A stretch of 64,000 bases of DNA from Sphagnum compactum (taxonomy: Eukaryota), in assembly GCA_965153455.1 (NCBI GenBank), contig OZ234493.1, positions 16,854,213 to 16,918,212 on the forward strand. Reading direction: 5' to 3'. Within the stretch, counting starts at the first letter, position 1, and every line of letters begins with the position of its first letter. Under the pieces are notes generated by a model. The model was not told where the DNA came from. It ran no database searches and saw nothing but the letters and a program-made list of their open reading frames with translations. Made by a program: the position numbers and the translations under genes. Positions 11,061 through 64,000 of this stretch are shown in pieces.

Positions 11061-11095
11061 GATTATAAGGAGCTTAGGTCTCCCCCCATCAAATT

Positions 11096-15000: not shown

Positions 15001-15044
15001 GCTACTGCATCTGATAACAATGTTCAACAATGTTGGTGTAAATT

Positions 15045-15142
15045 TGTTGATGAGCCTGAATGCAATAGCTAATTTCTCACTATGGTGACACAAATGAAGT
15101 ACCTTTTCTTCTTCCTCAACATCATGCTGCAGAAGTTTAGTA
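15045..15142 (-). pseudogene. Detached N-terminal fragment of a PPR DYW domain
   Basis: TKLLQHDVEEEEKVLHLCHHSEKLAIAFRLI is the HDVEEEEK..HSEKLAIAFGLI motif. It is truncated before CxxCH/DYW. Confidence 0.85.
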
Positions 15143-16058
15143 TCATTGAAATGCTGTCCAAATTCTGTTGAACACATTTAAGTTGTTGGGAGTGTATAAA
15201 AATTCCTCTCCAGTTTTGAGGCAGACTGTCAAAAAGCTTCTCTGCTGGAATCTCAAGTGAAGGACCGTCATATTCAACATCCGCGTTCAATGTTAGAGAT
15301 TGCATCAATCCTGGTATGCGACTGTAGTTAGCTGTGGACCAATTTGGTCGGATCCTAGGAACTTCCTCCCATCGCTCTACCAAAATTCGCCGGTCTCTAC
15401 GGTTGACACTCAACACGATCACTATGCGAGTTCTCCCATCACTGTTGGTGATCCAAAAGGCAGCATTGCTACGCAACATAGCAAGTGACTCTGACAAACC
15501 AACTTCAATAACAAAACTTGGCCAGTCGTCTTCCAATCGACGAGAACGGGGTATGTAACTAATATTTGCTTCCTTTGATGTACCTCCAGGGCATCCAAAT
15601 CTACCAGCTCCAGTTGCTAAAAGTGATGCACGAACATCTAGACGCAGGAACTTTGCCTCGAACATTGAGGCAAATTCATGTGCTGCAACTTCATGCATCA
15701 CACCCACCCTAAGTTTGACGATTAAAATTTCTTCTCTCCCATCGTACAGAATGGTCATTCGTGGTAGCCAACCCCGTCTCTCCTCACGAACCCTATCAAT
15801 CTCATCAAGACTCTCTTTACTCACACTTGTAAATGCCAAGTATTGAGGTGTTTGTGTTCCCTCAACTAGTCTCTTGGAGCGTGCCAAGCAAATCCTCTTG
15901 AAAGCAACCAAGTTTCTGAAAGGAGCTGGGGAAATGTTAGGATATCCCATAAGCACTCCTTCCAAATCCGCATCCTCCCGTGTTGGACTCGGATCCCTCG
16001 AAGTTGGACAAGATGGCACAAACTCAACATCATTCTCCCCACCATGGTATAACACCAT
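15143..16058 (-). pseudogene. Damaged copy of the Uma2-like PD-(D/E)XK nuclease gene
   Basis: Paralogue of 42309-43232. KEPD is changed to KEAN. A 5-bp deletion near 15212 shifts the C-terminus. The upstream CAG acceptor has become GAG. Confidence 0.75.
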
Positions 16059-19129: not shown

Positions 19130-19297
19130 ACTCTTTTGTGGCTATTCCGTTGAAAGAGCAGCTTTGGAAATCCTAGTATTTACAGTACTGAGTGAGATTA
19201 GGGAGATCGTGAGCATGTCTCTATCTTTTGTGGTTGAAGCAGTCATGATGCTTCCAAGTAGAAGGGAGACCGTGTATACAGGTCCCTTACCTTCCAG

Positions 19298-19864
19298 GAT
19301 TCAGATGTCTTTGTAGGGAATAGCTTGGTGGACATGTATCCAAAATATGGGAGCATGGAGGATGCTTGGAGTTCAACAAAATGCCATCTCAAAATGTGGT
19401 CACTTGCAACACCATGATATTTGGACATGTGAACTGTGGGCAATGGCAGAAGGGGCACTCGAACTATTTAAAGAATGAAACAGGAAGGTGTGCAACCGAA
19501 CTCTATTACTTTTGTGGGGGTGTTAGATGCATGTGCCAGCATAGTTGCACTTGAGGAGGGCAGGTGCGTTCACGAGGAGATCATAGAAAGTGGATGGGAT
19601 TCAGATGTCTTTGTGGTGAATAGCTGGGTTGACATGTATGCAAAATGTGGGAGCATGGAGGATGCTCAGAGAGTGTTGAATGAGATGTCATCATAGGATG
19701 TGGTCTCTTGAACCACCATGGTTTTGGAACATGTGAAATGTGGGCAAGGGCAGAAGGCACTCGAACTATTTGAACAAATGCAACAGGAAGGTGTGTGCCC
19801 AGATGCTGTCACTTTTGTGGGGGTGGCAAATCCATCTGCCAGTTTAGTTGCAGGGTGTGTGCCA
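19298..19864 (+). pseudogene. PLS-class PPR pseudogene fragment
   Basis: DVFVVNSWVDMYAKCGSMEDA, EGVQPNSITFVGVLDACASIVALEEGRCVH and GQGQKALELFEQMQQEGV are present, broken by frameshifts and TAG/TGA stops. Confidence 0.92.
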
Positions 19865-27200: not shown

Positions 27201-28970
27201 TTTTTGGTATTATTAGAAAACCTTCACCAAGTTTGATTTAACAACATTGATTCTATAATTTTGAGACCTAAAATGTGAACAAGATTATTGAAATATTAGC
27301 GGGTATTGTTATTGGAAATTCAAAAAAATTGCAAAAAAAGGTTTGGAAGGAAATATAATTGAATGCATTCAAATTTGGGCCATCAACATAGGGTACATTA
27401 ATGTTTAATGAATTTTTATCATAATTTTAAACAAATATTAATATATCATGTGTATAAAAATGAATAAACATTAAATTTGCACAATATTATTAATTATGCA
27501 TCATTTTTTAATATGTTATAATGATCTACATAAAAATAATAAATTACATGTATATTGAACATAAACATTATTAGTAACATATATTTTAGATTTTCTTTAA
27601 TGAACATCATTTGCTTGAAATTTCACGTATTCATAGTTGATTTTCTAAGTGATTGCTTCCATTACGTGATCACCCAAATTTATGAGACAAGCCAATTCTT
27701 GATAGTAGTCCATCAATTGCTTCCATTTCTTAGGTTCAACTTGAACTCAATTTACCACATGGTTTGGAATAGTTTCCAATAGTATTTTTTTGGGGGTGGT
27801 ACCACTTTGAACCACCTTGCCAAAATCATAGGAAAGTTGGACCCAATTTTTAAAAATAAAATTCCATCTACTTATACATTGGTTTATTTGATTGGATTAG
27901 GTGGGCTATGTTTTCCCCACCTATGCACACATTCGTGAAAAATAATGAACACCCAAAAACCTATAATATGCATTAACATTTTGAATCATAAACCATTCTT
28001 GACCTAATTTTTGATTTTTTTAAAAAAATGTCCTTACATTTACACATTAAATATTTTTCTTGTTTATTTAGTACATGCACAAGGGAATGATCCAAACTAA
28101 TCATTAAAACAACAAAAGGTGAAAATACTTATCATTTGTGTTCTTGACATCAACGGCCATTTAAGACTTCACAATTTTGACTTCAAAAATTCATAATTAA
28201 ATGAAAATTGATTCAATCAATTATCTATAAAAGACATCGAGTAAGTTGACATTTGAAGCATTTAAAAAAATAAACATCCAAAAAAACTTCTCAAAAAATA
28301 TATTTTTTCTATGTTCCTAATAATATATCCCTTTTGTGACATTCCTAAAACTTTTTCCTTATGCATTCATTTTTCTGCATCAAAACACATTTTTTTGTAA
28401 ATTTAATTAGAGTTTTGAATTCTACATGACTTGGGTAACCTTTTGATAAAAAAAGTTGGAACGAAAAGCTTTCTTTATATGAGTCCTATGTCGTTCTAAA
28501 GTTGAATGGGTTTCATAAATTTCATGTGTGCCATTCTTAGTGGTAACACCCAAGGATAAGTTTGTCATTCCATGCGCATCATATTGGTTTGTTAGAGATC
28601 GCGATCTGATGCCGATGATAATACTCTTGATAATCATATTCTAATCAACAATATTATTTTAAAGCATAGAGTCACATGTAGCCTACTTCAAATTTTAGTA
28701 CCCCATACCCCTATGGTTGGTGGTACTGAATATAATAGTAGATTGTGCTGTAAGCTCAAAACTCCCTCCATTTTAAATCCTCAATAGCCCACATAGCTAG
28801 AAATTGTTGATATATCGATCCCTGGAACAAATAAGGTCAACAAGGATTAATGAAAAGTTTACATTCAAAAAGATCAGGATTTTGTTCTCAGCTTGGACCA
28901 ATCAACCTCCTTTTGATTCAACAAATCAAAAGAACACTAGCTTTGCTATTGCAGAAAAAATGTAAATAAG
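24204..28970 (+). mobile_element. Left end of a putative CACTA-like DNA transposon (AT-rich arm)
   Basis: It begins CATTAATAGAAAA (one C>T from a CACTA...AGAAAA terminus). Repeated ttgcaact/ttgcgact motifs and tandem tgacatgtggca units follow (24597-24770). Positions 25290-28970 have an inverted copy at 60271-64000. Confidence 0.5.
25290..28970 (+). repeat. Left arm of a long inverted repeat (pairs with 60271-64000)
   Basis: Reverse-complement match throughout, e.g. ORF 27555-27782 vs 61494-61763. Also aagaacactagc..tgtaaataag (28970) vs cttgtttaca..gctagtgttctt (60271). Confidence 0.93.
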
Positions 28971-31900
28971 ACCGACTAATTGATGGACAATAAGATTTCA
29001 ATTTTAAAGAGAGCTTCCAAGTTCCAACCCCATAGCTCCTTGCAAAATATCCTCCAATAGCATAACAAATGATGTTGTAATAATGTCGTAATCACTTGTT
29101 GGTTTATAGGGTCTTGTTCCCTTTAGAGCTATTCCAACATCTATTAACTAGCTCTACCAATATCCATTACATAACTTGTCGGCAATTAGGTTCTCCTTCA
29201 ACCATGTACAAGACGTCAATTAAAAATAACAAAATGCACAAGTAAGCGAGACACGAAACACCTCCCAATAGCTCAACCTAATCTTTTTATGCCTTGTGTG
29301 GTTCTGCATAAAATTGTGCTGCACAATTTCGCTTCTTCTGCATGTTCCCAAAAAAATTAATTCATTTCATTTTTTAAAAAATTTGTTATCTCACACATCA
29401 ATTTTGAAGTAGCATCACAAAAGAAAATGACAGTACCAATCAACAACATAATTTTTACCATTACATAGGATCAGTCATAATGTTTATTTGACATAAAAAG
29501 AGCGTCAAAGTATTCAAAAATATTCTTCACATCCAAGTTTATTGGGCCCCGGACTAACGCATTCGATCCAACTTTTGGAAGTTTTACCTTATTAAAACTG
29601 GTTTCACATTTGATGAACCCGTTTCTTTGTTGAAAGTGTTTAGATTGTTTAAATTGAAACAAATGTTTTTCTGGCGTTCAGAGTGTGGACATAGTAGGTA
29701 GATGTACAACATCTTTTTTATTGGCAGGGCTCGTGTGTTTGTGACGCCTTCTTTATTTACTTTTTTTTGCTATCACACCCATGAAACTCCGACAATAAAT
29801 AGTGGAGGACTACTAATAACAAACCACCTGGACCAATCATTAAGTCAATCAGAAACGCTGCACTGAAGTCAGATCATATTTATTATATCCTTTTCGCCGC
29901 CTTTTACTAGCCACCGCAACCTGCACAATTACGATGAGCCAAACAATTTTCATGACCCTAGCCGGTAGAGATATTTTAACTTTTCCTCATCCAATTTTAC
30001 TGTGCAAATCCCACACTAAATACCTCTGAAGATGCTCCTACACATTGAACTACTAACTTAGCTCACTCAAAATAACTGAGAAAACAAATTCAAATCACCA
30101 AATCCAGCATTCTCATTCGCTTCGAAAAATAAAATCTTCAGACCTACCCACAACCCTATCATCCTGAACATTGAAAACAATGATCCCCTTTTATCATTTC
30201 CATTGGTCCTTTTGAAGTCTCAAAAACTTACCAAACCTTATTACACATTTAATTGTCAGTTCACTCAAGATAACTAAAAAAATTCATACCACCAAATTTA
30301 ATAATTTTATAGGTCGAAACATTTTTTCTTCATACCTACACATAAGCTTATTCAACACCCTCCACAGATTAGTACACTAATACTATGACCAGTGTCTGCT
30401 GTATACAGACGGGGTAAAAACTCAAGGCAATCTGTTCTTCAAAGGCTGGAATGTTTTTCGTTTTGTGCATCTTATGTATGTTTCTCTGAAAGAAGGATTC
30501 GGTCTCTCCCAGTCTCTGGGTGTCCCCTATTAGTCATTGTTCTCTTGTATGACCAATTTTAACCCTTAAATGGCATAAACCCTAAACCCTAAATAGTCCA
30601 ACTTTGGTTTTCAAAGGGTCCCACTTTGAAAGAAGAACCAGCCCTTACAAACCTCCAGAAAAGCCATGTCAAATGTCGGATTTTGGAAAATCCATCTTGG
30701 TAGAGTTCTATCTGACTTCAAGTGGGATTTTTCTGTTAAAACAAGAAACTTACAACAGGTGACTAAAAGATCAATGTGTCGGCCTGAGACTGGCATAGGC
30801 CGACTGGCATTCTTGATGGAGTGGCACACAAAAAGGAGAGGGGGACTTGGTTGAGATATGGAAAATCCCCATTGTTTGGGGTGGGGGAAGGGTGAGCCCC
30901 TTGTGACAAAGAAGTCACAATTGTCAGTCATAGGCCATACCTACCAAACCCCCTCCCAAAAATGGGCAGTTCCTACAACAATGTTCTCCAACTTTTTTTA
31001 ATGTGTCTAAGGCTCAAGCCTGATTGAACGTAGGGTTGTTCTCATCAATTTTGCGTTGTTCTTCAAATGATCATTTTGTGTTGATGCCAAAAAATTCATG
31101 CATAGAGTTTTGCACACAAAGAGGTTCACATAAAAAAAATTCACACAATGAAAAGAAAGAAAACCCTGCACATAAAGAGCTCACATATTATGTCTTTGCA
31201 CATAGAAAACAGCCACATAAAATGATTATGCTTTCACGATTCTCGTCATTGAACCTTAAATTTTAGACAACATGAGCCAAGGAAAATGAAATGGAACATC
31301 AATCAACTGCCCATGGCCATGACTTGAAATGGACATTTGCAACCCCTCCCCCTCCCCACCCCCCCAAAGATAACAGAACTCCAAAATTCAAAGAACCAAT
31401 GTTATTGAGACAAAATGTTGACAAAGACATTTTTTTTATAAATCTCCTCACTTAATCCACCCTTGTGTCATCGCATTGAATTCAAAGTTGATTTTGCATA
31501 GGACATACATAAACATTGGAATTAAAGAATAGGACACATGTGTGCACCAAAATTGGAATCTAGAATTGTCATCTTGAAATTGGTTGATGATGCCAAACAT
31601 GTGTCAACATTGTTCGCTACAAAGACCAAATTCATGCCAACAACCAGGTGACACCAGAAATTTGCAAGTTCCTCTTATTGACACCATTGCAATTACTCTC
31701 ATTATTCTACCAAACTTAAAGCAATCTTACATATGGTCAAGATTGTTAAGGCTAACTAGTCCTCAAATATCTTTGCCTTCTTCAAAGTCATTACCATCAT
31801 GTTCATGATCACTTTCACTTGCATGTGCTCAACATAATCCTTCGACACCTTTCTCTTCTGATCTTCCTTTACAGCTTTATCACCTTGCAAGTGCTTTTCA

Positions 31901-33879
31901 CCACCATCACTCAAGGATTCCACAAGTTTTCATTCCTCAAATTCCTCCATTATATTAGTCACTAGATTCTTTACCTTACGGCAAGGCCTTTCATTGAATC
32001 AAATCTTACATCAACCAATTTGGGCATGTTTTTCAAAAGTGACCAACAATGAATGTATGTAAAAGAAGCTTTGGGTGCTTGAGCTTTTAGAAGTCCTTGC
32101 TTTTTGTAAAACATCCTCCAAAAATGTTTCAGAGTCATTCAAAATAAGCACGGAACCACAACAGGCAATGAATTTTCTATGTCAAATGCTTAATAGTAAT
32201 ACCTCTTTTTATCTCTAGACTTCATGCAAGACAATGTCCATAATTTTGTTGCTTGTACTTCACAAAATGTACCTAAAATTGAATTGAATTATACTCGCAC
32301 TAATATCCACTCACACACCTACTCCAATTTGTTTCAATATTCCAACACATGGAGCTAAAATTTTCACAAACATATTCAATACAAATCAAACATTCATCAT
32401 AGTCTAAACTATGGACATTGTTATATTAGCATACAACCAATAATTTCTACCTTGCCCAGTACACGTGGTTTGGTAAAATATGGTCAACACATTGTTGATT
32501 CAAAATCACATTGCATTATTAAAATCTAATATGTTTCATTTCACATACAATTAGATCACCATATCTATTATTATGTGTCATGAACCCATCATATTAAGCA
32601 TGTGTCATTAATGTCATTCAAACTAAATTGCTAGAATTAGCATAAACAATAATTACACATTAAATGAGAATTACAAGAAATTGCAATGAAAGGACCTTGG
32701 AATAAATATTTAAAAACTCTAGGTACCTACTACCCATAACAACGTCAATCCACAAATTTTCCCACAAATTACAATCCCATAACAAATTTACTCCCAAAAG
32801 CATCTCATCAAAATATATTCAGTTTAAGTATGTATTCAAGCATGCTTTATACTCCACCAATGACATTGAAATTGCAAGGGACTATTCACTGATGAAGATC
32901 CAAGGAGATGTGATATGAAAGGACAAATGAGCGAGTCAAAATTGGGAGATTTGATTATGAGATTTGATATCCCGTGTCTAGTGTTCAAACACCAAAAGGC
33001 ATTGCTACAAAACACTCCGCTTCCCTACCAAGCATACTCTAGTGAGTGTACTAGGAGTTGCTCCTATAGCTCCTATTATACTAATTTGGAATTGTCATTA
33101 AGTTAATCCAATCATTATAGAAGACCCAATCCACCCATAGTTCATGTTGACCACAATGCATTTGTTTTTTTCCAAAAGTCATGACATGTTTCACTATCCT
33201 CCACCTCTATAGAGTATATATGCATAAGTTGGCATGATTTTTGAATTCATGTAACCAAGCAAGGGCAAGAGTAAACCAACAAAAGTCATCCTTATTTTAT
33301 TTTGATTCTGTGAATAATTATGGTCTTTGCAACTTGCACACCAATCCTGAATTGGAGAATTCAACATAAACTCTCAAAAAATATCAGACTCAATTTATTT
33401 GGGGGAGTTAATCCATACCTCTGCAAGTAAATTTTAGCTTGAGCAATGGCGACAGATTGCAGTGCTCATGTTGCTGTAAGGTTCTTTCCTTTCATTTCTT
33501 TATTCTGGGAATTAGATTCTTGTCGGTGATTAAGGAGAGTAGTAGGCCAGGTGGAAACCCAAAGAAACATGATATCAAAGAGGAAGGGAATGCATCAATT
33601 TGAAGAAAATCCCAATTATCAATACACACACTAACCGAACAATAATGGTTTCATTTGTTTAATGAGACTACTTGAAATTCTCATATGGTGCTCACCAATT
33701 GATTGCATAGCATCTGGGTCCCATTACCGGTTCACAATACAAATGGTAGTAATGTTTTGTATCCTCTAGAGAAAAATAATCATGAAGTTTGTGTCAATCT
33801 CCTGAGGTGGTTACACTTGTTCCATGTACATGACATGCCCATGATGAGACTAGACAACTCTTCAATAATGAAGTATGAA

Positions 33880-34300
33880 ATATTTCACAATCCTACGTGG
33901 CACCAAAAGAGACTAGGTATTGTATCCTCATTTATGAGGGTTTTATAGAAATTTCAAAATTAATTTCAGTTGATGATTTTGGTTAGGGAAACGATTCAAC
34001 AAACACCAAAAGAGACAAGGTCTTGTATCCTTTTTTCTGAGGGTGTTCTTTTGAAAATCTCAGGAATATTTTGAGCTGATGATTTTGGTTAGGGAAACAA
34101 TTTCATACTCCTAGGAAACACAAAACGAGGATAAGTCTTGTATCCTTGTTTATGAGGGTTTTTTGGATATTCAAATATTTTGAGCTGACAATTTGGTTAG
34201 GAAAACATTTCACAACCCTAGGAAACAACAAAAGAGACTAGAGGGGTTATTTGGAAACTTCAAAAGTATTTTGTCTTCATGATTTTGGCTTGGCAATTGG
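33880..34300. repeat. Copy-B minisatellite, one unit shorter than in copy A
   Basis: Anchors at about 33981, 34087, 34195 and 34287 (four, versus five in copy A). Confidence 0.8.
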
Positions 34301-34333
34301 ATTATAAGGAGCTTAGGTCACCACCATCAAATT

Positions 34334-35241
34334 TTGTGGGTGAAGGGTGCGTTGGGTTCGGTATTTTTATCTTGGAGTCTAGAAACAATTTTGAGTTTTG
34401 AAACATGGCAGGCAGCAAAACCATGCATATGTACAACATTCTCTTCTGGAAAACACAAATGTGCGGAGACAACCTCCACAACAACATACCACAGCCTTGA
34501 CATAAAAGAAACAGACAAGAGATTTTGAGGACCATCTGAATACATTGCTGAGTACTTCCCTAAACAATCCAATGCACATCGGATCACAAAAGATGGGATT
34601 TCCCTTCTTGGTTGTGTTCCAACTGGGGCACAATACAAGAAACCTGCACAACTGAATATTCAGGTTCATATAATGAAAAGCCTATATTCCCAGCACAGCC
34701 TAAAAAGGAGGCCAATTTGGACCCATATTCTTGCACTTTTAGAGGAAGAACAACATATGATGATTCATACGTGAGCTGGCCTGCAAACCCTAGATCTGGG
34801 TTTAAGCCACCTGGGTTTCATTCAAACCCAAAGGCTTTGGAAGGCAAAACATCCTACACACATGATTACTGGGATAAATCAAGGCCTGTCCAAACCTGGA
34901 GAAAATCCGAACATTGGCCACATACCTATTCTCTTTGTGAAACCCACCATCCTCATAAGTTGGAATCCATGCCTTCAAAGCCTCTAGACACGGCATCTCG
35001 AATAATACCATATAGCAAATTTGCTGAAAATACAACATATTCTGATCATTATAGGAAGTGGAGAGTCCAAGATAGTGTAAGGAATGTGAAAGAGGTTAGA
35101 TGGGGACCAGAAGTAGAGAAATATGTAGGCCACACAACCTACACACAAGGTTTCCGTAAATGTTCAGTAGGGGAAAAATGCAATGTTTTGATGCATCCTA
35201 AGCCAACGGTTTTGGTAAATGGCCACCAATGTTACCCATGA
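34334..35241 (+). pseudogene. SAXO-like pseudogene
   Basis: TGA at 34526-34528 (CAA in copy A), a 1-bp deletion near 34650, and the Cys motif degraded to CICTTFSSGKHKC. Confidence 0.85.
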
Positions 35242-38209
35242 AAAGAATCAATATCTCCTTCACCAAATACCTTGACATGTGGAGAACTTATTCTATTCTA
35301 TGCTAACTTTTAATGTGAAATTATTATTTTTGACCACTATGTTTGCAAGTGTTTAACCTTTGTGTATGGTCAATGCACCTCTTCATAGCCATATAATCCA
35401 TAAAAACTATAATTTCAAACTCCTTTACAATCATATTAGTTTTTTTTTTAATTGAAATTTCTTTCAACATTTAAGTTTTCTGTGCACACTCATGAATCCT
35501 AAAAACATTAGTTTTCCTCAAAAGTCTTCAAAACCTTGGTGAAGCTCTCAAGTCAACATTTATTATTCGGGGGGCAGTTTGCACAAACAGGTATGCATTG
35601 ACGCCCCATTTGCTGCCCAAATATTGGGCAGGGCAACTTCAATCAATGTGTCTGAAATATATAAAATTTCACAATACCTACTGTATTGAATAATAAATAT
35701 GAGTGTACATATATGGTCATATTGGGTTGCATTTGTCATGTTTGTACATATTTCCAAAGTCCAAAAAGGTTAAGATTACATTTGGATCGAAGATATATCT
35801 ATTTTGATGATGGATCTTTTTCAAAAGTCTTCTGTAGAGAACAATTGTTCTGGTATAATGCATTATAAAATTGAAAAACATGTGAAACTGCACCTTCTTC
35901 CCCAAGAGATTCATTTGAATGGATTTGCTGTTCGCTTATGGAATACCATTTGCTCGGGTATTTGCCAAGTTCACTTTACCTGTTTCTGTGATTTGTATAA
36001 TCACATTGATGCCGCTGTAGTTCACCTGTTAGGGATTAATCCACCTCACTTAAGCATGTGCCAAGCAAATGATGAACCAGTTATGTGCTGCTGTGTTGTC
36101 CAGCAGGGTTAAGATTCACTGTTGCAATTCTCAAGCACATAGAATCAGTTCATCATGTATAGTGCACTCATAGTATCTTCAAGCAAGTTGTGCTAGTTTG
36201 CATGGGTTATGGATACGAAAGGTATGTAAGAATTTTTCAAACCGTAATCACTTTTGCTACTGTTTAATTCCTGTTTGAGCAGTAGCAACGAGACTTTTCC
36301 AGCAAGTTGTGATGTCAGCAGGTTTGTGTGGGGATTGCTCGATTACAGTGAGCAATGGCAAGTGGGTCGTCTGACAATGTGCAAATAAGGATATTCCCAT
36401 GGTCAGTTCATATTCTTTCACATCTAGCATGCGGGCAGTGTCAGGTCTGCTGTGCAACCATGGAAGCATGTTGACGTCTGACCCTGTGATTTTCTTCTTC
36501 TCTAGGTTTTTTAGAAGTTCTCTGCCTTGGTGAACACTCATACAGAATAGAGATCTTGTTTGTGGAGGAATGTGTAGGTGTTGAGAAACTCTTGTCCTGG
36601 TTTGAAATGACATGAATTTACATGAACAGGGCAGGTCCAGAGAAGTATGCATCAATGTGGCCTGTGCCTCCAAAGTAGTTCCTCTACAACAGGAGGCTTA
36701 CCTAAATCTGAGGGAAAAAGAGATGAATAAGCATAATGCTAGAATTTGTGGCATAAAGGATTGTCAAGATGCAAGAGGAAGTTTTTGATACATGTGAAGG
36801 CAAAGGCGAAGAGTTTGGAGATGAAGATTTAGAGTTTGGACAAGAAGAAGATGCAGATTTCAATGAGTTTGAAGATTTTTCAAGAAGAAGATCTGGAAGA
36901 TTCAGAAGAATCAGAAGACTCTGACAACTATGAAGGACTTGAAGCCTTTGGAGGGCCAAGAGGCTTTTCAGTTCCATCACAATACTGACAGGAAGCTTCA
37001 ATCCAGATTGAAGCTCCCGTTGCTGAAATCTATGAAATTCTTGAGTCATGGGGTTTTATAACCAAGAGGAAGAAGCAACCCATGCCAAATGATTCTGTGT
37101 TAGGCCATGAAGATCATCATGTTGTAGCATGGTATCACAAGGTGAGTATAGGACTTGTGGAATTTTATGCATGGTGTGACAATTATCAGAAAGTGAAGGC
37201 TATTGTGAACTACCCACTTACGGTGGTCACTCATTCATACATTCTGCAAGAAGCACAAGTCAAGCTCAAGCCAGATAATTAAGGAATATAGGAAGAACTT
37301 GATCACAACACATGATGGTAAGCAGAGATCACAGCATTTGGGAAAAAATCTGTTACTAATAGTCCAATCCATCCCAATTATTGACAGATCTTCTGTTTCC
37401 AAAAATGAGAAGGGACAGGTTGCCAAAGGGTGCACAGTTGAGGAATTCATGTCATAGAGACACCACCAATTCAGTCTTCTTCCACAAATTTGATATTATA
37501 CATCACCAGGACACAGTATGTTTAACCAGCTCAAGAGGTGCAAATTGGGCAATGAGTTTTTACAGGAAGAAAGCATTTAATGTCACATGCAATTGTCAAG
37601 GGGACTCACTTACAGATTTCCAACTTAAGGGCAGCTTCGTCAATTCAAATATGTACTTGGGAAGAAATCTCATCAAGAAACCCTATGGTTGGAGCCTCCA
37701 ATAATGTGCAATCAGGTACACAATTTCTCATATGTTTCAAGAGATTTTGGCACTTGAAATTCCAAGTAAGCCAACTCTGTTAGGGTCTAGGAGAAATTCA
37801 ACTGGAAATCCGCTAAATCTCTTGTGCTGAAAGAATTATATAGCTACACTTTCTTAAACGCATATTACATTAAGTACAGATATAGCATCTCTATTGACAA
37901 GCTGAACCAAATTGAAAGCCTCTTTGGATAAAATAAGGAGGAAGTGATGCTATCCAACATAAGTTTTTCTTTGATAATCAAGCCTCTGATTCAATTCCGA
38001 AGAAACTTTGAAAAGTAGTTCTTGTTCTTCAACAGATCAATTAAACCAAACTCGGTGGAGCTGCAAAGCCTTAGGAACCTGAAAAACTGACTATTGACAA
38101 CTCCAATTCATACACAGTAGGAGTTCAGGAAATCCAATCTACAGGGAGGCTCCAAGGCCACTTTTTCAGTGCTACTGCATCTGATAACAGTGTTCAACAA
38201 TGGTGGTGT

Positions 38210-38880
38210 AAATTTGTTGATGAGCCTGAATGCAATAGCTGATTTCTTACTATGGTGGCACAAATGAAGTACCTTTTCTTCTTCCTCAACATCATGCTGC
38301 AGAAGTTTAGTACATGGCACATACCCTGCAACTAAACTGGGAGATGGATTTGCCACCCCCACAAAAGTGACAGCATCTGGTCACACACCGTCCTGTTGCA
38401 TTTGTTCAAATAGTTCGAGTGCCTTCTGCCCTTGCCCACATTTCACATGTTCCAAAACCATGGTGGTTCAAGAGACCACATCCTGTGATGACATCTCATT
38501 CAACACTCTCCAAGCATCCTCCATGCTCCCACATTTTGCATACATGTCAACCAAGCTATTCACCACAAAGACATCTGAATCCCATCCACTTTCTATGATC
38601 TCCTCATGAACACACCTGCCCTCCTCAAGTGCAACTATGCTGGCACATGCATTTAACACCCCCACAAAAGTAATAGAGTTTGGTTGTACACCTTCCTGTT
38701 TCATTCTTTAAATAGTTCTAGTGCCCCTTCTGCCATTGCCCACAGTTCACATGTCCAAATATCATGGAGTTCCAAGTGACCACATTTTGAGATGGCATTT
38801 TGTTGAACTCCAAGCATCCTCCATGCTCCCACATTTTGCATACATGTCCATCAAGCTATTCCCTACAAAGATATCTGAAT
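38210..38880 (-). pseudogene. PLS PPR-DYW pseudogene with an internal deletion
   Basis: PLS motifs run on into ...DAVTFVGVANPSPSLVAGYVPCTKLLQHDVEEEEKVLHLCHHSKKSAIAF. Stops and frameshifts are present, HSE has become HSK, and DYW is truncated. Confidence 0.9.
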
Positions 38881-39049
38881 TGTGGAAAAAAAGTGACCTG
38901 TATATATGATCTCCCTTCTACTTGGCAACATCATGACTGCTTCAACCACAAAAGATAGAGACATGCTCATGACCTCCCTAATCTCACTCAGTACTGTACA
39001 TACTAGGATTTCCAAAGTTGCTCTTCCACCTGAATAGCCACAAAAGAGT

Positions 39050-39532
39050 CTAGAACACCTCAAAAGCCCTGGCAGTGTTGTTGTCAGATCCTGACAAAAT
39101 AAACCGAACATCCCTGCAAGCGAACATGAGCATTGAAAAGCAGCTCTCAATCCCTGTGAATAACCACTGCCTACTGGAAACTTTACGTGTTGAATTCTTT
39201 CTTGAAACCTGGCAATTTTGATTCTGAACCTAGCCTAACAGGCATAAGCTATTTCCATTCAGTCGCAAGTCAACTTAACTTCCCCCATAATGAAAATGGA
39301 CAGTAGTCTGTTCTTGACTCTTTGAAGGAACCTTTACATCAATGCATGAAAAAGCCATGGGAGAAAGGAAGACACACTTTGTGCTGGCAATATCTAATAT
39401 GATGTCTTTATGTCCTTGATATGTGCATTCACAGTTCCCTGTGCAGCCATCCCATGCTCTAACTTTCCCATCCAAGGAGCCTGTATAAACAAGTTGAGAC
39501 ATAGGAGACTGCAGAAGTTTCACCACCCCATC
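39050..39532 (-). pseudogene. WD40 AAMP/SQT1-like terminal exons, copy B
   Basis: ORF 39275-39571 contains VYTGSLDGKVRAWD..YQGHKDIILDIA and is the paralogue of 18642-19129. Confidence 0.75.
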
Positions 39533-41535
39533 CTCTACATTTCCAGCAAGAACTTCCTTCAGGGGGTCCAATCTTTAAACCTATCCACCCTTTCCAGTGA
39601 AGGTGCACACTTTGCACAAATCAAAAAAGGGGAGAAGAGAGCAAAGCAAGATGCATTATTTCTTCTAAAGAACAAATTTCTTTCAAACAATGAAACTGAG
39701 ATCAACTGATCAAGTTGCAGCAGAAAAACAACACATGTTCAACTGTGCAGAACTTCTCTGGAAATGTTTTTTTTCAATCAAGAGCACAATGTGGACTATT
39801 TTCTGCAATCTCAGCCATTGTTTCCAGCAAGGAGACAAATTTAGGCTGGGATGTGTTCATGAGAGGAAGTGGGACGTATAAGGAGAAGGAAAGACAGAAG
39901 GGGGTGCTCAGTGGTACCATGGTTGTGGGGTCGGCTGTCAACTGTGGCATGCTCCCATGGCTTTTCAAAGAGCATTTGCCTGTGCACCTGTCACAATCTG
40001 TTTACAGTGGCCAGGCAAGCAGACATATCCAACACCTTCCATATTTGTAATGGTATCTGCTTCAAGACTTATGACAATGAAACACAAAAGTGTTGTGCAA
40101 TTTTTCATACACATACAGCTCTACATACATCTCCAATCAGAAGCGATTCTTGAACTCAATACAATCAACAACCACTTGTGAGGTCGCCAGTAACCCTAAG
40201 TACAAGGTTATTAACTTAATGCTCTCTGTTGTTGTGCTACTGATCTTCGTCATCAGAGTGTGAACCACAGCATTACTTGCCATTCAGAAGCTTCATGATG
40301 CTCTTCACCACTATGAAAGACTTTTCTACTTCTGCGAAGACTCTTTGGAAGGAAAGCTATATGGGGTTCTGTACCATAAACTAAGAAAACGCCATGCATT
40401 TTTTGCTTTATTTTGCCTAAGAAAATGCAAAGCAAAACAAGCGATAATATATATTACCGCTTTTTATGCTTTGCATTTGCCACTTTCTTATGCCTTCTCC
40501 AACTGTTCTTTTACTATGTGTATCATGGTTGCAGGGGATGTGTATTAGAGGCTGCAGGCGATGGGTCAGGCAAATGTGTATCAGAGGCTGCAGGAGATGG
40601 TTTGCGAAGAGGCTGCAAGTGATGGGTGCCGTCGGAAACCCCGTGAAATGCGAAGCAAGTAAGTAAGTACCCAAGTGCTAGTCGAAGAAGCTGATACCTG
40701 AGATGATGCCGATGATCCTGCTGATGAAGGCGATGAGCAAGATCCCAGTTGCTTGAGAAATTGATCAGTTTCTTAGCAGTTGCAGCAGCACAGATTTCTG
40801 TAGAGTTGCTCCTTAGGAACTGCTTCCTGATTCCTCTTGAGCGAGCGGGTGGTGTACAGACAAGAAGCTCACGGTCAACTCCCGTTGCCTCTCTATCTCT
40901 GTCTTTCTGTCCTCTTCTTTTTCTTCTTCTTCTTCTTCAAGTCCATCAGCTCCTTATGAGTGCAGCGGCGTCCCAGCACCTGCAGCTCCTCGTCGACGTG
41001 TCTACATTGCCCTGATTTGCTCTGATCCGATGCAAGTGTGAACCAAAGGACCGAACCCGAAATGAAAAAAAAACTAAAAACCACAACACTACAGATCAGA
41101 TCCAGAAGCTGACAGCAGGAAAAACCAAAACCATATTTCAGCTGTTGCTGTAAGAAAAACCACAAACTTGTAGTGTGTGCAATTATGAATGAAGGAAAGA
41201 TCCCACCCACCTCCAGGCTCCAAACTTCTTGGCTTGTTCGTTGTTCCACAGAAAGAAAGACACACCAGAGAAGAGACAGAGAAGCTCAAAAGCTGGGAAG
41301 TTGAAAAGCAAGGTCGACAAAAGAAAAAGAGGAGAGCAAGAAGATGGAAGGCCCGGCAGATACATAGAAGGTTTTCAGTCGTCAGAACCGAGGGAAAAAA
41401 GATCAAAATCGCCAAATTTTCATATTTGGTTTTCATTGTGTAGCCAAATATAGAGACATATGATTAAATATTTGTACCTTATTTCTCGTTAATAGCTAGA
41501 TTTGGCTAAATCTTCCTTGTCTGTTTTTAGGAATT

Positions 41536-42308
41536 TCTTTATATAGCCAGTCTGAAGGACCGGTAGGATTCATCCATTGAAGTCCGGACTTCTGTCCGCG
41601 TCCTTGTTGCCTGTCGCAGCAGACGCGAACGCGAGGAGGCCAAGTTCTGCTCCGAGAAGGTGCGCGCGACTTCTACAGTGATTGTTTTCCTTCTTGTCTG
41701 TCGCAGCATACGCGAACACGTTTTCCTTATCGTCTGTCGCAGCAGATGCGTTCGCGAAAAGGCCTTTGAAGATTCTGCTCCGGGAAGGTGCGGCATCAGC
41801 AGTGATCGAAACGAGTGTGTGTTTTTTTTCGCAAGGTATTGTGATGAAACAAATTTCTGAGCCAGTTTTTCCTCTTCTCTTTTTTTTTTTTTGACGGACT
41901 GTGAGGCGGCGGTGTGCTCTGGTGGCGTGTTTCTTGTCGTCATGTTCCAGCGAGTAAGTTGAAAATGTTATCTAAGTGCAGTCGTAGTGCTATTCAAGGT
42001 TTTTTTCTGATTTTCAATACCTGCACAATGCCATTGTGATATTTTGTTTTCTTTCTCATTTTCAAACACTAGCACACAATACCAACGGGTTAGTATTGTG
42101 ACATTTTTTTTTCTGATTTTCAAACTTGGTTAGTTTAGTTTTCGGGGATTGATTAGGGTTGCATTTAGTTTGAGGGAAGTGAATATAGTATCTCTCTATC
42201 AATTTTCTTGCGATTTGAGATCACTTGATGCAATTGTTTTTTGGATTGAATGTTTGTTTCCAAGTGTTAAAATATATTGTGTGTTGGTTCAGGGGCAGCA
42301 TCTTCAAA
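41536..42308 (+). promoter_or_regulatory. Putative TATA box, CpG-rich 5'UTR exon and 5'UTR intron (41954-42292) of the nuclease gene
   Basis: TTTATATAG near 41538, followed by a CpG-rich pyrimidine-rich stretch. Donor GTAAGT at 41954, a T-rich intron, acceptor TTCAG ending at 42292, and AAAATG at 42309. Confidence 0.55.
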
Positions 42309-43232
42309 ATGATGTTATACCATGGTGGGGAGAATGATGTTGAGTTTGTGCCATCTTGTTCAACTTCAAGGGATCCGAGTCCAACTCCAGAGGATGTGGA
42401 TTTGGAAGAAGTGCTTATGGGATATCCTAACATTTCCCAAGTTCCTTTCACAAACTTGGTTGCTTTCAAGAGGATTTGCTTTGCACGCTCCAAGAGACTA
42501 GTTGAGAGAACACAAACACCTCAATACTTGGCATTTACAAGTGTGAGTCAAGAGAGTCTTGATGAGATTGATAGGATTCGTGATGAGAGACGGGGTCGGC
42601 TACCACGAATGACCATTCTGTACGATGGGAGAGAAGAAATTTTGATCCTCAAACTTATGGTTGGTGTGATGCATGAAGGTGTAGCACGTGAATTTGCCTC
42701 AATGTTCGAAATGAAGTTGCTGCTTCTAGACTTTCGTGCATCACTTGCAGCAACTGGATCTGCTAGATTTGGATGCCCTGCAGGTAGATCAAAGGAACCA
42801 GATGTTGGTTACAAACCCATTTCTCGTGAAATGCAAGACGGATGGCCAAGTTTTGTTATTGAAGTTGGTGTGTCGCAGTCACTTGCTATGTTGCGTAGAG
42901 ATGCTGCATTTTGGATCACCAACAGTGATCAGAGAACTCGCATAGTGATCGTGTTGAGCATCAACCGGAGGGATCGACGAATTTTGGTAGAGCGATGGGA
43001 GGAAGTTCCTAGGAGACGACCAAATCAGTCCACTGCTAACTACAGTCGCATACCAGGATTGATGCAATCTCTAACATTGAACGCGGATGTTGAATATGAC
43101 GGTCCTTCCCTTGAGATTCCAGCAGAGAAGCTTTTTGACGGTATGCCTCAAAACATTCCTGGAGGGGAATTTTTATTCACTCCCCACAACTTAAATGCGT
43201 TCAATAGAACCATTTGGATTGCATACCAATAA
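42309..43232 (+). CDS. Intronless PD-(D/E)XK restriction-endonuclease-fold protein (Uma2-like), 307 aa, resembling fungal hypothetical proteins
   Basis: Intact ORF with YDGREEILILKLMVGVMHE, SKEPD, WPSFVIEVGVSQSLAMLRRDAAFW and RIVIVLSIN..ILVERWE. This is the HE...PD...(I)EV.S pattern of Uma2-type nucleases. Confidence 0.8.
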   Translation: MMLYHGGENDVEFVPSCSTSRDPSPTPEDVDLEEVLMGYPNISQVPFTNLVAFKRICFARSKRLVERTQTPQYLAFTSVSQESLDEIDRIRDERRGRLPRMTILYDGREEILILKLMVGVMHEGVAREFASMFEMKLLLLDFRASLAATGSARFGCPAGRSKEPDVGYKPISREMQDGWPSFVIEVGVSQSLAMLRRDAAFWITNSDQRTRIVIVLSINRRDRRILVERWEEVPRRRPNQSTANYSRIPGLMQSLTLNADVEYDGPSLEIPAEKLFDGMPQNIPGGEFLFTPHNLNAFNRTIWIAYQ

Positions 43233-44395
43233 CGCTTGCAATGAGCTGCCCTTACTTTGTTGGTTAGTAGTTAAATCCCTTTTTGGACTGTGTTTCTAAC
43301 ATCTGTTATATGTGGCTTTTATTCTGGCTTTTATTCTAAATCTGATGTGTACCATTCATCAGCTGGGAAGAGCTTCATACAACTCGACCAGCCTGGAATA
43401 TAGTAGATTGTGTGATAATATTAATACTCCAGTGAATAGTTGTCCTTGGATTCTGATATGAAACACAAGTCCAGTTGGTTGTACCTACAAGTCATATTGT
43501 TCCAACACAAGCTGTCAAAATTTTGCAAAAAACCAGATTCAAATGATATTTTTATGTCTTAAGAAGCATCTTCATGCTTATTAATGTGATACTTTTGAAC
43601 TATGAATGGGTGATGACCTTCAAACGCCATATGAATTCTATTTTCTTTTCTATCTTTAATGATAGTTGGGTTCAGCTTGGACATGTCCAAGTAAACCTTA
43701 TTGTTAGATCAGCTCACAGGTTGACTTCAAATCTTTAGCATGGAAAAGCTCTTGTCGAAGAACAATGTTCATACATTTCAATGATAGAACATTGCCCCCA
43801 GTATTCCTTGAAAATATCAGAGCAGTGAAGGTGAACTTCTCTATTTGTCAACAACTTTTTCAAAAAGCTTCCAAACCTAAATAACAGGTGATGTATAAGG
43901 TCCATCTGCAATTTGCAACAGCAGCTTATTCAGTATTTATAATTCCAAGGGAACTATTACGGTTTGTTAAATAAAGTGGCCTCTGCTATGGAGGTCTGCT
44001 CCCCAAAGTTGTTCCTCAGAAGTTAGGCCCCAAAACTACAAAACCCTTTCTGCAGTTGAATCTCTAGACACAGGTGAAGAAGATTTCAGCTTCTAAATCT
44101 AAAGCTCATATTGTACAAACTCAAAGTATCTTAAAGAAATCAAGAAAGGTGTTCCCTGTGTGAAAGAGCAGTTACCAATTGCTGTAACCTGTTGACATCA
44201 ATGTTTCTAAGCTGGAGCTCCACATGGGCTTTGGCAAGTCCTAACTTTGCATAGTGCAACTCCTGAAAACATCGACAAAGACCTGAATCCACTTGGGACT
44301 ATCCCAGTTGGTACCACCGTATTTGGGACCCCACGAAAAACTCTGAAATCCTCCAAAACCCCCACCCTGTAACATATGGACTCCGGTTGCAAGTG

Positions 44396-59741: not shown

Positions 59742-60270
59742 CTGTGAGGGCAAGATTCAAGAAACTAATGATGATTGGATAAATGTTTAATGGTTAGGTG
59801 TGCAGCTTATTATTGATTACAGGTTGCCCAAGCTAGTCTTTTACTAGCATGTTCCATTTTAAGGTGTTAGGGGGTCATCATTGTAAAACTTCTAGTATGC
59901 AAACTTTTATTTAAGTTTAGATCAAGCCTTGGAGCAATGGAAGGATGACTAATAAAAGGAAAAAAAAACAGAAACATAGAGGAATGGGAGAAAATAGTTG
60001 TTGATACGAGGGAGAGAAGAAGGATTAAATAATAATCCTATGATTAAGAAGTCATTAGTGACTTGATCTATAAACTATTAATAGCTAATAAGAGAGATCA
60101 AAAGACAAAAGAGTGAGCAAGTTGAACATAATTCATTCAAGGGATGAAAATAGACTATGATTCTATCAACCCCCCCCCCCCCCCCTCAACCCTTAAAGAG
60201 CAAAGTTCAAGCTAAATTCTAGATGAAATGGACAAAAGATAAAAGGATCCCATATGCCCCCTTAATTTTT

Positions 60271-63200: not shown

Positions 63201-64000
63201 TAAGGAAATTTTGAAATATAATTCAACTTAATAATGTTTATGTTCAATACATGCATAATTTAGTTTACAACAAATGCTTTTTGGAATAGGTTGAATACAT
63301 TTGTAATTATTATTTCCATGTAGATTAATTTTAGTTTGCAACACATCATGTAATGATACATAATTAATATTTTTTAGAAATTTATTTTTTATTCTAGTTT
63401 TGGCTATTAGTTCCAATAAGTTTTTCATTTTTCCATTTTATTATCAATATTTTATTATTTACTTAGTTATTTATGATTAAATTATAATAATGATTGGAAT
63501 AATTAGCAATATATATTTAGTCAATTATCATATAATTTTAGAGATTCTTTTCATTTAACATTACTATACTTTGAGATATATTTTTTATATATATTTCTTA
63601 TTTAATAGCTATTATACTAGTTCATAAAAGTTCCAACAAGTTAGATAAAAATATGAATAATAATAATTAAATAACTAGCCTAGCCTAACTACTCGCTACA
63701 ATTATTAATAATGTTTTTGTTGTATTTATAGCCAACTATTAATTGTCACAATATTTTAATAACTAATTTGATAAAAATATCATTTAAATTTGATTATTGA
63801 TTATTTAAATTTTAGTGAATTCATTGTTTTATGAAATGTTAATAAAAAGTTATAAGGGGTTTGGAATTTTTAAAAATTTCAGTAATCACTATTAATTAAT
63901 TAGTTAATAGATAATTACATTTAATTTCTGGTTTTCTTTAAAATTAACTAATCACCATATTATTTAATAAATGACGATAATATGTTAATTGTTTAAATCA
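60271..64000 (-). repeat. Right arm of the long inverted repeat, running off the window edge
   Basis: Reverse complement of 28970-25290. The match is still continuing at base 64000. Confidence 0.93.

Follow-up and report, generated by a model that had tools for sequence, protein, structure and literature searches.

The window analysed here, the whole stretch of 64,000 nucleotides from Sphagnum compactum, almost certainly contains a real and expressed nuclear gene of Sphagnum type, the product of which (P0001) has a Uma2-like fold. Taken together, the data tilt towards a family of Uma2-like nucleases which is probably derived from fungi and which evolves by birth and death of its copies in a conflict-like manner.

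Gene model and transcript

The stop-to-stop open frame spans positions 42225-43232 on the forward strand, with its first ATG at 42309, and codes for 307 aa followed by a stop. The intact frame and its HE, SKEPD and WPSFVIEVGVSQS motifs, as described in the initial annotation, were all found again. Only one of the 22 stop-to-stop frames with 130 aa or more in the 64-kb window is longer, namely the gene's own duplicate (15069-16193), referred to as copy B.

The gene had been described as intronless. This holds for the coding region, because homologues align over their full length without gaps, but not for the transcript, which carries an intron in its 5′ untranslated region (Table 1). A joint from 41827 to 42287, found in RNA contigs from runs X1 and X2, has five letters in between and is a shifted rendering of this intron, beside a T-run. 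The splice evidence consists of contig L018 and of the X1 and X2 RNA contigs, as the raw reads from the species itself (X24) are too sparse at this position to cover the joint. An alternative intron donor, GTAAGT near 41953, was discarded since the spliced contig L018 sets the donor at 41836.

RNA sequencing had been suggested as a check on expression, and the gene is indeed transcribed in sense. A total of 88 polyA-RNA reads align to it, 62 of them with at least 99% identity, and the first mate is always on the minus strand. Reads cover 42291-43424, and none lie in the flanks.

Table 1. Features of the gene, its product and its surroundings (positions in the 64-kb window; residues refer to P0001).
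Feature	Position	Strand	Basis or remark
Copy B (duplicate, damaged)	15146..16058	-	5-bp deletion in codons 282-284 (frameshift), 3-bp deletion in codon 301, D165N
DYW-deaminase fragment	38111-38380	-	
WD40 exon	39278-39574	-	
4.9-kb segment with the gene	38315..43230	.	inverted repeat at 15145-19864, 91-95% identity (window self-BLAST)
Exon 1 (5′UTR), at least	41588..41835	+	X1 RNA contig on 41588-41827; L018 aligned on 41589-41836, then jump to 42291
5′UTR intron, GT..AG, 457 nt	41836..42292	+	L018 spliced: ...CGCAAG joined to GGGCAGCATCTTCAAAATG (GGGCAGC...)
CDS of P0001, Uma2-like PD-(D/E)XK fold protein, 307 aa plus stop	42309..43232	+	ORF scan; fold model
H122-E123, start of helix alpha1 (120-139), candidate catalytic Glu	42672..42677	+	motif and model
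Hypervariable segment, residues 124-158 (remainder of alpha1 and next loop)	42678..42782	+	13 intact Sphagnum copies aligned
S161-K162-E163-P164-D165, candidate catalytic Lys and Asp	42789..42803	+	motif, conservation
W179-PSFVIEVGVSQS191, E185 as candidate catalytic Glu; strand 182-188 in model	42843..42881	+	motif, conservation
3′UTR, end approximate	43233..43424	+	polyA depth up to the 43344-43424 bin, about zero past 43505

Genomic setting and copies of the gene

The plant-type neighbours that had been noted earlier are confirmed by a DYW-deaminase fragment and a WD40 exon in the same window. The protein is fungal-like and its coding region is free of introns, as would be expected from fungal contamination or mis-assembly, but this explanation is effectively refuted. 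The gene's protein is recorded on a contig of 36.96 Mb, where the gene is flanked by the plant DYW and WD40 sequences; the same gene with its flanks occurs in several Sphagnum-type contigs, and the gene recurs in assemblies assigned by name to six Sphagnum species. In addition, the 5′UTR intron is spliced, and polyA-RNA reads bearing the same species label match at 99% identity or above. Integration into the moss nuclear genome is also seen from chromosome-scale contigs in both Sphagnum and Ceratodon and from syntenic copies.

The 4.9-kb segment which carries the gene is the end of a segmental duplication of about 14 kb, of which a further part (28979-38312) matches 5638-15142 in direct orientation. 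Copy B, which was missing from the initial annotation, codes for a protein 82% identical to P0001.

The earlier view of a lone gene, privately acquired, had to be given up. There are several family loci per Sphagnum genome, and Ceratodon purpureus has four paralogues on four chromosome-scale contigs. Metagenomes provided 40 related loci, of which 12 are intact and 23 damaged by stops, frame changes or rearrangements, and half of the sequence clusters (16 of 32) consist of damaged copies only. Sequencing-run shares were all small (0.13 at most) and thus do not point to a habitat. Transcription is not restricted to intact copies: L018 is spliced yet has three stops, and L020 is spliced onto a different first exon. 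These data fit a small birth-and-death family, with a recent 14-kb duplication in this window and roughly every second sampled copy damaged.

A unit of 1.25 kb, corresponding to 42167-43415 of the window, was found relocated to another genomic context, where its 3′ junction carries CCCTAAA repeats. The short relocated copies were considered as retrocopies, which could be ruled out because about 125 nt of the intron are retained and a single locus is seen in seven contigs. The relocated unit, the many copies (many of them dead), and the inversion of the 4.9-kb segment between the two copies in the window, with an edge only 2 bp from the stop codon, could also point to a mobile or selfish element spreading in Sphagnum genomes, with the gene as its cargo or its enzyme. 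We consider this very improbable. Most intact copies share kilobases of flanking sequence on both sides and are thus syntenic orthologues or homeologues, the duplicated segment also carries pieces of the host (WD40, DYW), and the relocated unit represents one locus rather than many insertions. Neither terminal repeats nor a transposase or reverse transcriptase were found adjoining the gene by self-BLAST of the window and comparison of ten frames to Pfam.

Predicted fold and candidate active site

At the sequence level, P0001 is hardly connected to known families. A Pfam search returned no family at E<=10, and hence neither a Uma2 nor a CRN-type match; comparison to PDB sequences and NCBIfam yielded no more than a chance match to TisB (E 0.051), and the family profile retrieved only bL27m (E 0.14) from the PDB sequences. 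The gathering threshold of Pfam Uma2 (PF05685), which is 27 bits, was not reached. Seven of 77 relatives match this model below threshold (best E 3.7e-4). The Lipomyces protein P0115 scores 13 bits against the cut-off of 27, its weak match lying over the region of the E185 strand. PADLOC had no match for P0001, P0133, P0115 and P0121, while the Aspergillus relative P0303 touches PDC-S17 (E 1e-5). As P0020 bears the UniRef label "Fungal-type protein kinase domain-containing", a kinase-fused family was considered, but none of ten longer members has a kinase domain; the sole extra domain in these ten is an N-terminal ubiquitin in P0187.

The predicted structure agrees with the Uma2/DUF820-type PD-(D/E)XK fold that had been proposed from motifs. 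The AlphaFold (AF2) model of P0001 has a pLDDT of 88.2 and a pTM of 0.84. In a Foldseek search against PDB, ranks 1 to 7 are all Uma2/DUF820 structures, with E-values from 9.4e-7 (1wdj_A) to 3.5e-3 and a probability of 1.00. VIA gave Z 13.8 and rmsd 2.8 for 1wdj_A, with 174 of 186 residues aligned, followed by 6okh_B (Z 12.7), 3ot2_A (12.5) and 9y1l (9.9). BpuSI, DrdV, Hjc and other restriction-like nucleases match at lower Z (Foldseek, VIA). The predicted model thus shares its fold with the solved structures of TT1808 (1wdj) and Ava_3926 (3ot2), and it shows the core order alpha-beta-beta-beta-alpha-beta (helix 120-139; strands 146-148, 160-162, 166-170 and 182-188; helix 192-205; strand 212-219). 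According to this model, P0001 would consist of an N-terminal alpha/beta extension (approximately residues 26-72) and a nuclease fold of Uma2/DUF820 type (approximately 73-300).

The candidate active-site residues are widely conserved. In 69 relatives from outside the mosses, E185 is found in 68, K162 in 66, D165 in 63, H122 in 61, E163 in 60 and E123 in 52 (with Asp in another 10). All 54 Sphagnum proteins have K162, E163 and P170, and all but one have E185, W202, E228 and W230, but position 165 is Asp in 43 and Asn in 11, and H122 is replaced by Tyr in 13. In three of the 13 intact Sphagnum copies, E123 is replaced by Cys or Gly. Intact copies can thus lack catalytic-type residues, so that the predicted catalysis is not kept universally. 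P0001 itself retains all residues near the presumed active site that are conserved in the wider family (H122, E123, K162, E163, D165, E185, S189).

The catalytic residues typical of the superfamily are a Glu in alpha1, an Asp on beta2 and (D/E)-X-K on beta3. E123, D165 and E185 are present in P0001, but the triad reads E185-V-G187 and thus has Gly187 at the classical Lys position. Because a Gly follows E185-V, K162 is proposed to substitute for the classical Lys. E123, D165 and E185 could act as metal ligands in a metal-dependent cleavage of phosphodiester bonds in nucleic acid, and target or partner specificity may reside on one face of alpha1 and the neighbouring loops. Whether P0001 is an active nuclease, as predicted, seems evenly balanced.

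Fungal relatives and origin of the family

The family is large, with 1355 representatives (50% identity clusters) at E<=1e-3, most of which lack an organism name. All named relatives outside the mosses are ascomycetes (Lipomyces, Aspergillus, Pseudogymnoascus), which corroborates the ascomycete affinity originally suspected. In the ESM Atlas, the closest clusters belong for the most part to Ascomycota, with one from Mucoromycota. When named fungal relatives were sought with a profile, only 12 proteins were retrieved. A word-index search gave 122 matches, 14 of them to rows named Sphagnum (six species) and six to rows named Lipomyces. Named plant members come from Sphagnum and Ceratodon only, in this insensitive word-index search and among the 30 of 150 listed representatives that were looked up, three of which were named. 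Sequence identity amounts to about 40% with the Ceratodon proteins and about 30% with the fungal ones.

In an unrooted tree of 58 rows, 42 of them without an organism name, Sphagnum and Ceratodon group together with 11 unnamed rows (UFBoot 99, SH-aLRT 90). This group lies inside another one that contains Lipomyces (99/96), and Aspergillus and Pseudogymnoascus are found across a branch with 100/97 support. A fungal origin of the family is the most likely reading because Sphagnum and Ceratodon form a single well-supported group in a family whose other named members are ascomycetes. With most relatives unnamed and the tree unrooted, transfer from a fungus to mosses is to be taken as likely rather than proven. 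As the family also occurs in Ceratodon, any such transfer must be old or must have occurred repeatedly.

It might be argued that there was no transfer from fungi, and that the gene is either an ancient eukaryotic one which was lost outside fungi and mosses or has moved from mosses to fungi. A root placed on the stem of the moss group would unite the fungi as one clade, and the unnamed majority of the family, including the 11 rows in the moss group, leaves room for this. We nevertheless judge it improbable. Despite the large number of representatives, the named plant members are confined to two genera of mosses, the closest clusters in the Atlas are fungal, and the internal branches between the moss group and the rows around Lipomyces are short. 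Vertical descent would demand loss in nearly all other plants and eukaryotes. On comparison of these sequences, we therefore favour a family of fungal origin that entered the mosses from a fungus.

Selection among intact copies

The gene had been proposed to be domesticated, but this was not borne out, as the global omega among 13 intact Sphagnum copies is 1.02. The pairwise omega has a median of 0.88 over 78 pairs and is 0.94 between copy A, the gene described here, and copy B, where the differences are spread evenly over the three codon positions (27/23/23). Taken alone, these values fit neutral decay. However, long invariant blocks are found next to hypervariable ones in the alignment of the intact copies, and a model with a single omega of 1 (lnL -4042.7) is far inferior to a mixture of omega classes on a fixed tree (lnL -3932.6). 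The gain for classes with omega above 1 is 2dlnL 160.7, with about 58% of the sites at omega 0.2-0.35. When synonymous rates were allowed to vary, the gain was 2dlnL 42.2 and twelve sites had P>0.95, six of them within 127-147 (P(beta>alpha) above 0.95 at 127, 131, 135, 138, 143 and 147). These figures are from custom scripts with fixed branch lengths, mixed orthologues and paralogues and a non-standard null; they are uncorrected for recombination or gene conversion, and metagenome contigs may contain errors.

Selection is a mosaic: the core evolves under purifying selection, whereas changes on the alpha1 face and in the loops outpace those at silent sites. Thus the dN/dS check that had been called for has a mixed outcome, with the purifying core and the omega above 1 on the alpha1 face on one side and an overall value near 1.0 on the other.

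These results bear on the suggestion that the gene is a functionless though expressed relic, an old foreign gene which drifts, is passively copied by segmental and whole-genome duplication and in the present copy has not yet been broken. Besides the omega values near 1, the damaged loci and damaged-only clusters, the transcribed pseudogenes (L018, L020) and the intact copies devoid of catalytic-type residues all speak for it. Against it stand the strong site heterogeneity, the invariant blocks, and the residues that are uniform or nearly so in the Sphagnum proteins, and the identity retained to Ceratodon and to fungi requires long-term constraint. We regard a drifting relic as a rather unlikely explanation, albeit one to be taken seriously.

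A conserved core, a fast-evolving alpha1 face with its loops, and the turnover of copies fit a conflict-type role better than a housekeeping role. Such a role, in defence, in self/non-self recognition or as a selfish toxin, is proposed tentatively. A more explicit version, unlikely as it stands, would be that a fungal Uma2-like nuclease was captured by mosses and became a fast-diversifying conflict gene, either a nuclease of innate immunity or self/non-self recognition or a selfish killer resembling Spok. Its specificity would reside on the alpha1 face and adjacent loops, with duplications creating new specificities and old ones ending as pseudogenes. If true, a function would for the first time be assigned to a eukaryotic Uma2-type protein, and plants would have an immune component obtained from fungi.

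Relation to known systems

To our knowledge, the large Uma2/DUF820 family, whose members are termed "putative restriction endonucleases", has solved structures and no known function. P0001 resembles the Uma2/DUF820/TT1808 proteins (PF05685; 1wdj, 3ot2, 6okh, 9y1l) in its fold over approximately residues 73-300, where one strand bears an Asp and the "EV..S" strand a Glu. It differs in being undetected by the Pfam model and in having an additional alpha/beta portion at the N-terminus, about 70 residues long. In addition, the moss copies have a hypervariable helix face, and the family described here is eukaryotic (fungi and mosses), whereas Uma2 has been described for bacteria, above all cyanobacteria, in the accessible parts of two papers (PMC3424549, PMC4102429), the first of which terms it a "predicted endonuclease". 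Activity data for any Uma2 protein were not found in the literature searched.

Fungus-derived genes of bryophytes, such as those for KP4 killer proteins and FB lectins or those in "fungi-derived genomic regions", are comparable to the family in that their relatives are fungal, introns in the coding region are scarce or absent, and their distribution in mosses is patchy. For 49 streptophytes, 1,809 HGT-derived families have been reported, many of unknown function, and defence-related examples are cited in the accessible text (PMC12513842). A Uma2-like or restriction-endonuclease-like gene among fungus-derived bryophyte genes was not found in the literature searched, but the supplementary lists of that study may already include the family. 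The present case, a moss gene probably derived from fungi, is interesting though not without precedent.

The Spok spore-killer proteins of Podospora also have a fungal domain of the PD-(D/E)XK superfamily and may serve as an analogy for a selfish or toxin nuclease. According to the accessible part of the description, this domain is involved in genetic conflict and killing depends on its catalytic Lys (PMC6660238). By the same description, the Spok domain is HsdR/RecB-like rather than Uma2-like and belongs to a large protein of several domains that includes a kinase antidote (PMC6660238), so that the likeness to P0001 is one by description only.

Significance

Uma2/DUF820 gains a large eukaryotic branch, which spans all of the representative clusters counted above, has ascomycetes and mosses as its named members, and is touched by Pfam weakly and in few relatives. 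If the moss genes should be a drifting relic, they would be a further entry in the already long list of HGT candidates in bryophytes. Peat mosses are keystone carbon-storing plants, and in this family they show a combination of gene turnover and site-specific selection that is typical of immunity genes or selfish toxin genes. If activity and role are confirmed, the family would provide an experimental handle on the function of Uma2-type proteins and represent a further case of mosses armed with fungal genes.

An intact, transcribed gene and its damaged duplicate

From its first ATG, the open frame of copy A encodes protein P0001, in which the three motifs named in the initial annotation, H122-E123, S161-KEPD-165 and W179-PSFVIEVGVSQS-191, are all present. 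The window has 22 stop-to-stop frames that reach 130 aa or more; this one ranks second in length, after that of the damaged duplicate, copy B. The neighbourhood of copy A is plant-type sequence, containing a DYW-deaminase fragment and a WD40 exon; a Pfam scan of eight further long window frames identified no family.

Transcription was examined in raw reads of one polyA RNA-seq run (X24; about 12% of the run sampled), which is filed under the species label shared by the best-matching records. A total of 88 reads fall on 41400-43800, 62 of them at ≥99% and 26 at 95-99% identity, all with the first mate on the minus strand. Read depth spans 42291-43424 and the outer bins are empty. Copy A is thus transcribed, as the initial annotation had asked to be checked. 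The reads at 95-99% identity and a loose end of nine reads at 43154 demonstrate transcription of a close paralogue or allele as well. In contig L018, window position 41835 is fused straight to 42293 (...CGCAAG joined to GGGCAGC...), which therefore reveals a 457-nt GT..AG intron in the 5′UTR. RNA contigs of runs X1 and X2 have the same skip, in a slightly shifted rendering beside a T-run. The intron is confined to the 5′UTR and the coding region is uninterrupted.

The protein of copy B is 82% identical to P0001 over residues 1-285. It has suffered a 5-bp deletion in codons 282-284 and a 3-bp deletion in codon 301, and it also carries D165N. Both copies are located in a segmental duplication of about 14 kb, which consists of a direct and an inverted part with junctions at 15142/15145 and 38312/38315; just 2 bp separate the edge of the inverted block from copy A's stop codon. 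The arrangement at copy A looks ancestral, because its downstream flank is also present in further contigs of Sphagnum type (L001, for instance, as far as window position 46000).

Other elements were noted in the window. Short DYW-deaminase (PPR editing factor) fragments, probably gene remnants, occur at the direct/inverted junction. A pair of direct repeats, about 80% identical, is found in both copies of the inverted block at its gene-distal end. A very AT-rich inverted repeat possibly represents two copies of a transposable element.

Features of the window surrounding copy A
Feature	Position	Strand or orientation	Remark
Copy A, open frame	42225-43232	+	
Copy A, from first ATG	42309-43232	+	307 residues (P0001)
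Copy B	15146-16058	-	damaged
DYW-deaminase fragment	38111-38380	-	PF14432, E 2.3e-6
DYW-deaminase fragment	14938-15177	-	
WD40 exon	39278-39574	-	E 1.2e-6
Segmental duplication, ~14 kb	5638-19864 and 28979-43230		90-96% identity
Direct part	5638-15142 vs 28979-38312	same	90-96% identity
Inverted part, 4.9 kb	15145-19864 vs 43230-38315	inverted	91-95% identity
Direct repeats, ~255 bp	38327-38580 / 38630-38880	direct	
Direct repeats, ~255 bp	19297-19549 / 19597-19852	direct	
Inverted repeat, ~3.7 kb	25293-28971 vs 60270-63997	inverted	81-85% identity, GC 0.21-0.33

Fold and candidate active site

P0001 matched no Pfam family at E≤10 and no PDB sequence, and a profile of 77 family sequences had no relevant match in PDB. 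The AlphaFold2 model, computed with the family alignment A1, has a pLDDT of 88.2 and a pTM of 0.84, with disorder only in residues 1-19. When searched with Foldseek, ranks 1-7 were all Uma2/DUF820 structures (1wdj with E 9.4e-7; also 3ot2, 6okh and 9y1l). VIA-align superimposed model residues 73-299 on 1wdj_A (Z 13.8, rmsd 2.8, 174/186 residues), followed by 6okh_B (Z 12.7) and 3ot2_A (Z 12.5), with further restriction-type nucleases at lower Z. Because sequence models fail while structure matches succeed, P0001 is, according to its predicted structure, Uma2-like in fold and outside Pfam's sequence definition of Uma2. The initial proposal of a Uma2-like restriction-endonuclease fold was therefore right at the structure level. 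Sub-threshold Uma2 matches were obtained for 7 of 77 relatives (best E 3.7e-4), and the Lipomyces relative P0115 has a weak match (13 bits, cut-off 27) spanning the SKEPD...EVGVS region. In contrast to the bacterial structures, P0001 has an extra alpha/beta part (residues ~26-72).

Seven residues are widely conserved among the 69 non-moss relatives in A1: H122 (61), E123 (52, with D in 10), K162 (66), E163 (60), D165 (63), E185 (68) and S189 (61). P0001 retains all seven. The position of the classical (D/E)XK lysine is occupied by Gly187, and K162 may substitute for it. In 54 near-full-length Sphagnum proteins, K162 and E163 are invariant, and E185, W202, E228 and W230 are each present in 53. 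D165 is replaced by N in 11 and H122 by Y in 13 of these proteins, and E123 is missing in 3 of 13 intact Sphagnum copies.

Some relatives have additional characteristics. In P0187 (372 aa) the Uma2-like domain is preceded by a fused ubiquitin domain at the N-terminus (PF00240, E 3.5e-22), the sole fused Pfam domain among 10 proteins scanned, nine of them longer relatives. P0303 from Aspergillus pseudocaelatus aligns over residues 35-155 with PDC-S17, a candidate defence model of PADLOC (E 1e-5); this weak lead might link the family to prokaryotic defence candidates. The Sphagnum jensenii paralogue P0020 is named 'Fungal-type protein kinase domain-containing' in UniRef; as neither P0020 nor nine longer relatives scanned contain a Pfam kinase domain, this label has probably been mis-propagated.

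The family in Sphagnum

A word-index search with P0001 gave 1535 candidates, of which 122 proteins scored E≤1e-3. Rows as far as P0114 are Sphagnum-type and mostly 53-89% identical, with P0112 (42%) ranked among them. Fourteen of the Sphagnum-type rows bear a species name (S. magellanicum, jensenii, balticum, troendelagicum, tenellum or fallax) and are spread over several chromosome-scale contigs per species.

The initial annotation saw a candidate domesticated acquisition; the picture of a single such gene gives way to that of a small moss family with gene turnover. Among 40 related loci from a metagenome contig scan, 23 are damaged by in-frame stops, frame changes or rearrangement (L039 being a debatable case), an undamaged frame over at least 286 residues is found in 12, and five more show no damage but are truncated at the end of their contig. 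Clustering of these loci and both window copies at 96.5% nucleotide identity resulted in 32 clusters, 13 with an intact copy, three with partial undamaged copies only and 16 with damaged copies only. Most intact copies are syntenic orthologues or homeologues, since kilobases of flank are common with copy A. Several members, including damaged ones, are represented by spliced transcripts, as L016, L018 and L020 lack intron sequence.

A damaged 1.25-kb unit (window 42167-43415) occurs in another genomic place, and seven contigs represent this same locus (L014, L015, L020, L021, L029, L030, L031); its 3′ junction lies in telomere-like CCCTAAA repeats. In L020 another first exon is joined to the relocated copy by splicing, which makes it a pseudogene that is transcribed from new surroundings. 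A paralogue lineage (L016, L017, L019) lacks window 42265-42370, including the usual start codon, and the frame of the spliced L016 transcript begins at residue 21/22. In this lineage LYC replaces MHE, so that H122 and E123 are lost; the frame is still open in L016 and L017.

Selection

Copies A and B differ with dN 0.091 and dS 0.097 (omega 0.94), and omega is 0.64 between copy A and L001. For the 13 intact copies (283 gap-free codons), the median pairwise omega is 0.88 (78 pairs, range 0.56-2.23) and the global omega (GY94+F3X4) is 1.02. This neutral-like average conceals a mosaic of selection. In an omega-class mixture (custom scripts, fixed IQ-TREE tree), lnL rose from -4012.97 with classes ≤1 to -3932.61 with free classes (2dlnL 160.7), about 58% of the sites having omega 0.2-0.35 and about 42% omega 1.5-6. 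A model that allows synonymous-rate variation among sites reduces 2dlnL to 42.2. These home-made tests use fixed branch lengths, a mixture of orthologues and paralogues, and a non-standard null distribution, they take no account of recombination or gene conversion, and the contigs may carry errors.

In the model with variable synonymous rates, P(beta>alpha) exceeds 0.95 at twelve sites (44, 127, 131, 135, 138, 143, 147, 171, 174, 208, 240, 304) and P(beta<alpha) exceeds 0.9 at 23. The helical spacing of sites 127, 131, 135 and 138 puts them on a single face of helix alpha1 that carries on from E123. In the alignment, residues 124-158 and 164-178 are hypervariable and stand beside invariant blocks, which include LPRMTILYDGREEILI, WPSF.IEVG.S.SLA.LR.DAAFWIT and ILVERWEEVP.

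Relatives outside Sphagnum and origin of the gene

An exhaustive search at E≤1e-3 yielded 1355 representatives, of which 455 also pass E≤1e-10 and 30 pass E≤1e-30; a look-up of 30 representatives gave organism names for three. The named relatives comprise Ceratodon purpureus (P0133, P0296, P0298, P0143; contigs of 16.7-29 Mb in named assemblies), Lipomyces spp. (six rows, 30-32% identity), Aspergillus pseudocaelatus and Pseudogymnoascus. In the ESM Atlas, the clusters adjoining P0001 and P0121 consist mainly of Ascomycota (scores 0.97-0.98), and ranks 15-17 are a Mucoromycota cluster with Uma2 in 23% of its members.

A quick tree of 116 rows (members of 230-420 aa from the 150 matches listed, plus chosen moss and fungal rows) united Sphagnum (100) with a clade that includes Ceratodon (99) in one 27-row group (SH-aLRT 89). 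A careful, unrooted tree was computed for 58 chosen rows: one group (99/90) contains six Sphagnum rows, four from Ceratodon and 11 rows without organism name. It is enclosed in a 44-row group to which Lipomyces also belongs (99/96); a 100/97 branch separates Aspergillus and Pseudogymnoascus from these. The simplest reading is a single old entry into mosses, but in an unrooted tree this grouping could also reflect several transfers or a root placed on the stem of the mosses. The fungus-to-bryophyte transfer suggested in the initial annotation is thus favoured by the fungal relatives and by the position of the mosses, and we consider a fungal origin of the gene likely.

TT1808/DUF820/Uma2 is described as a 'predicted endonuclease' of bacteria that has undergone multiple transfers (PMC3424549), and Uma2 is reported from just one of 137 fungal proteomes (PMC4102429). 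For 49 streptophytes, 1,809 HGT-derived families are reported, many of unknown function and several with defence roles (PMC12513842). Our literature searches turned up no description of a Uma2-like gene in bryophytes; the supplementary lists of PMC12513842 may include the family. In Spok, a group of meiotic drivers in fungi, killing is reported to be done by a PD-(D/E)XK domain (PMC6660238), which is HsdR-like and thus differs from the Uma2-like moss protein, so that the likeness is an analogy only.

In summary, the moss family is small and turning over; its catalytic-type core is conserved and its surface evolves fast, and copy A is among the members that retain every core residue. P0001 may have nuclease activity, and a conflict-type role of the family in mosses is conceivable.
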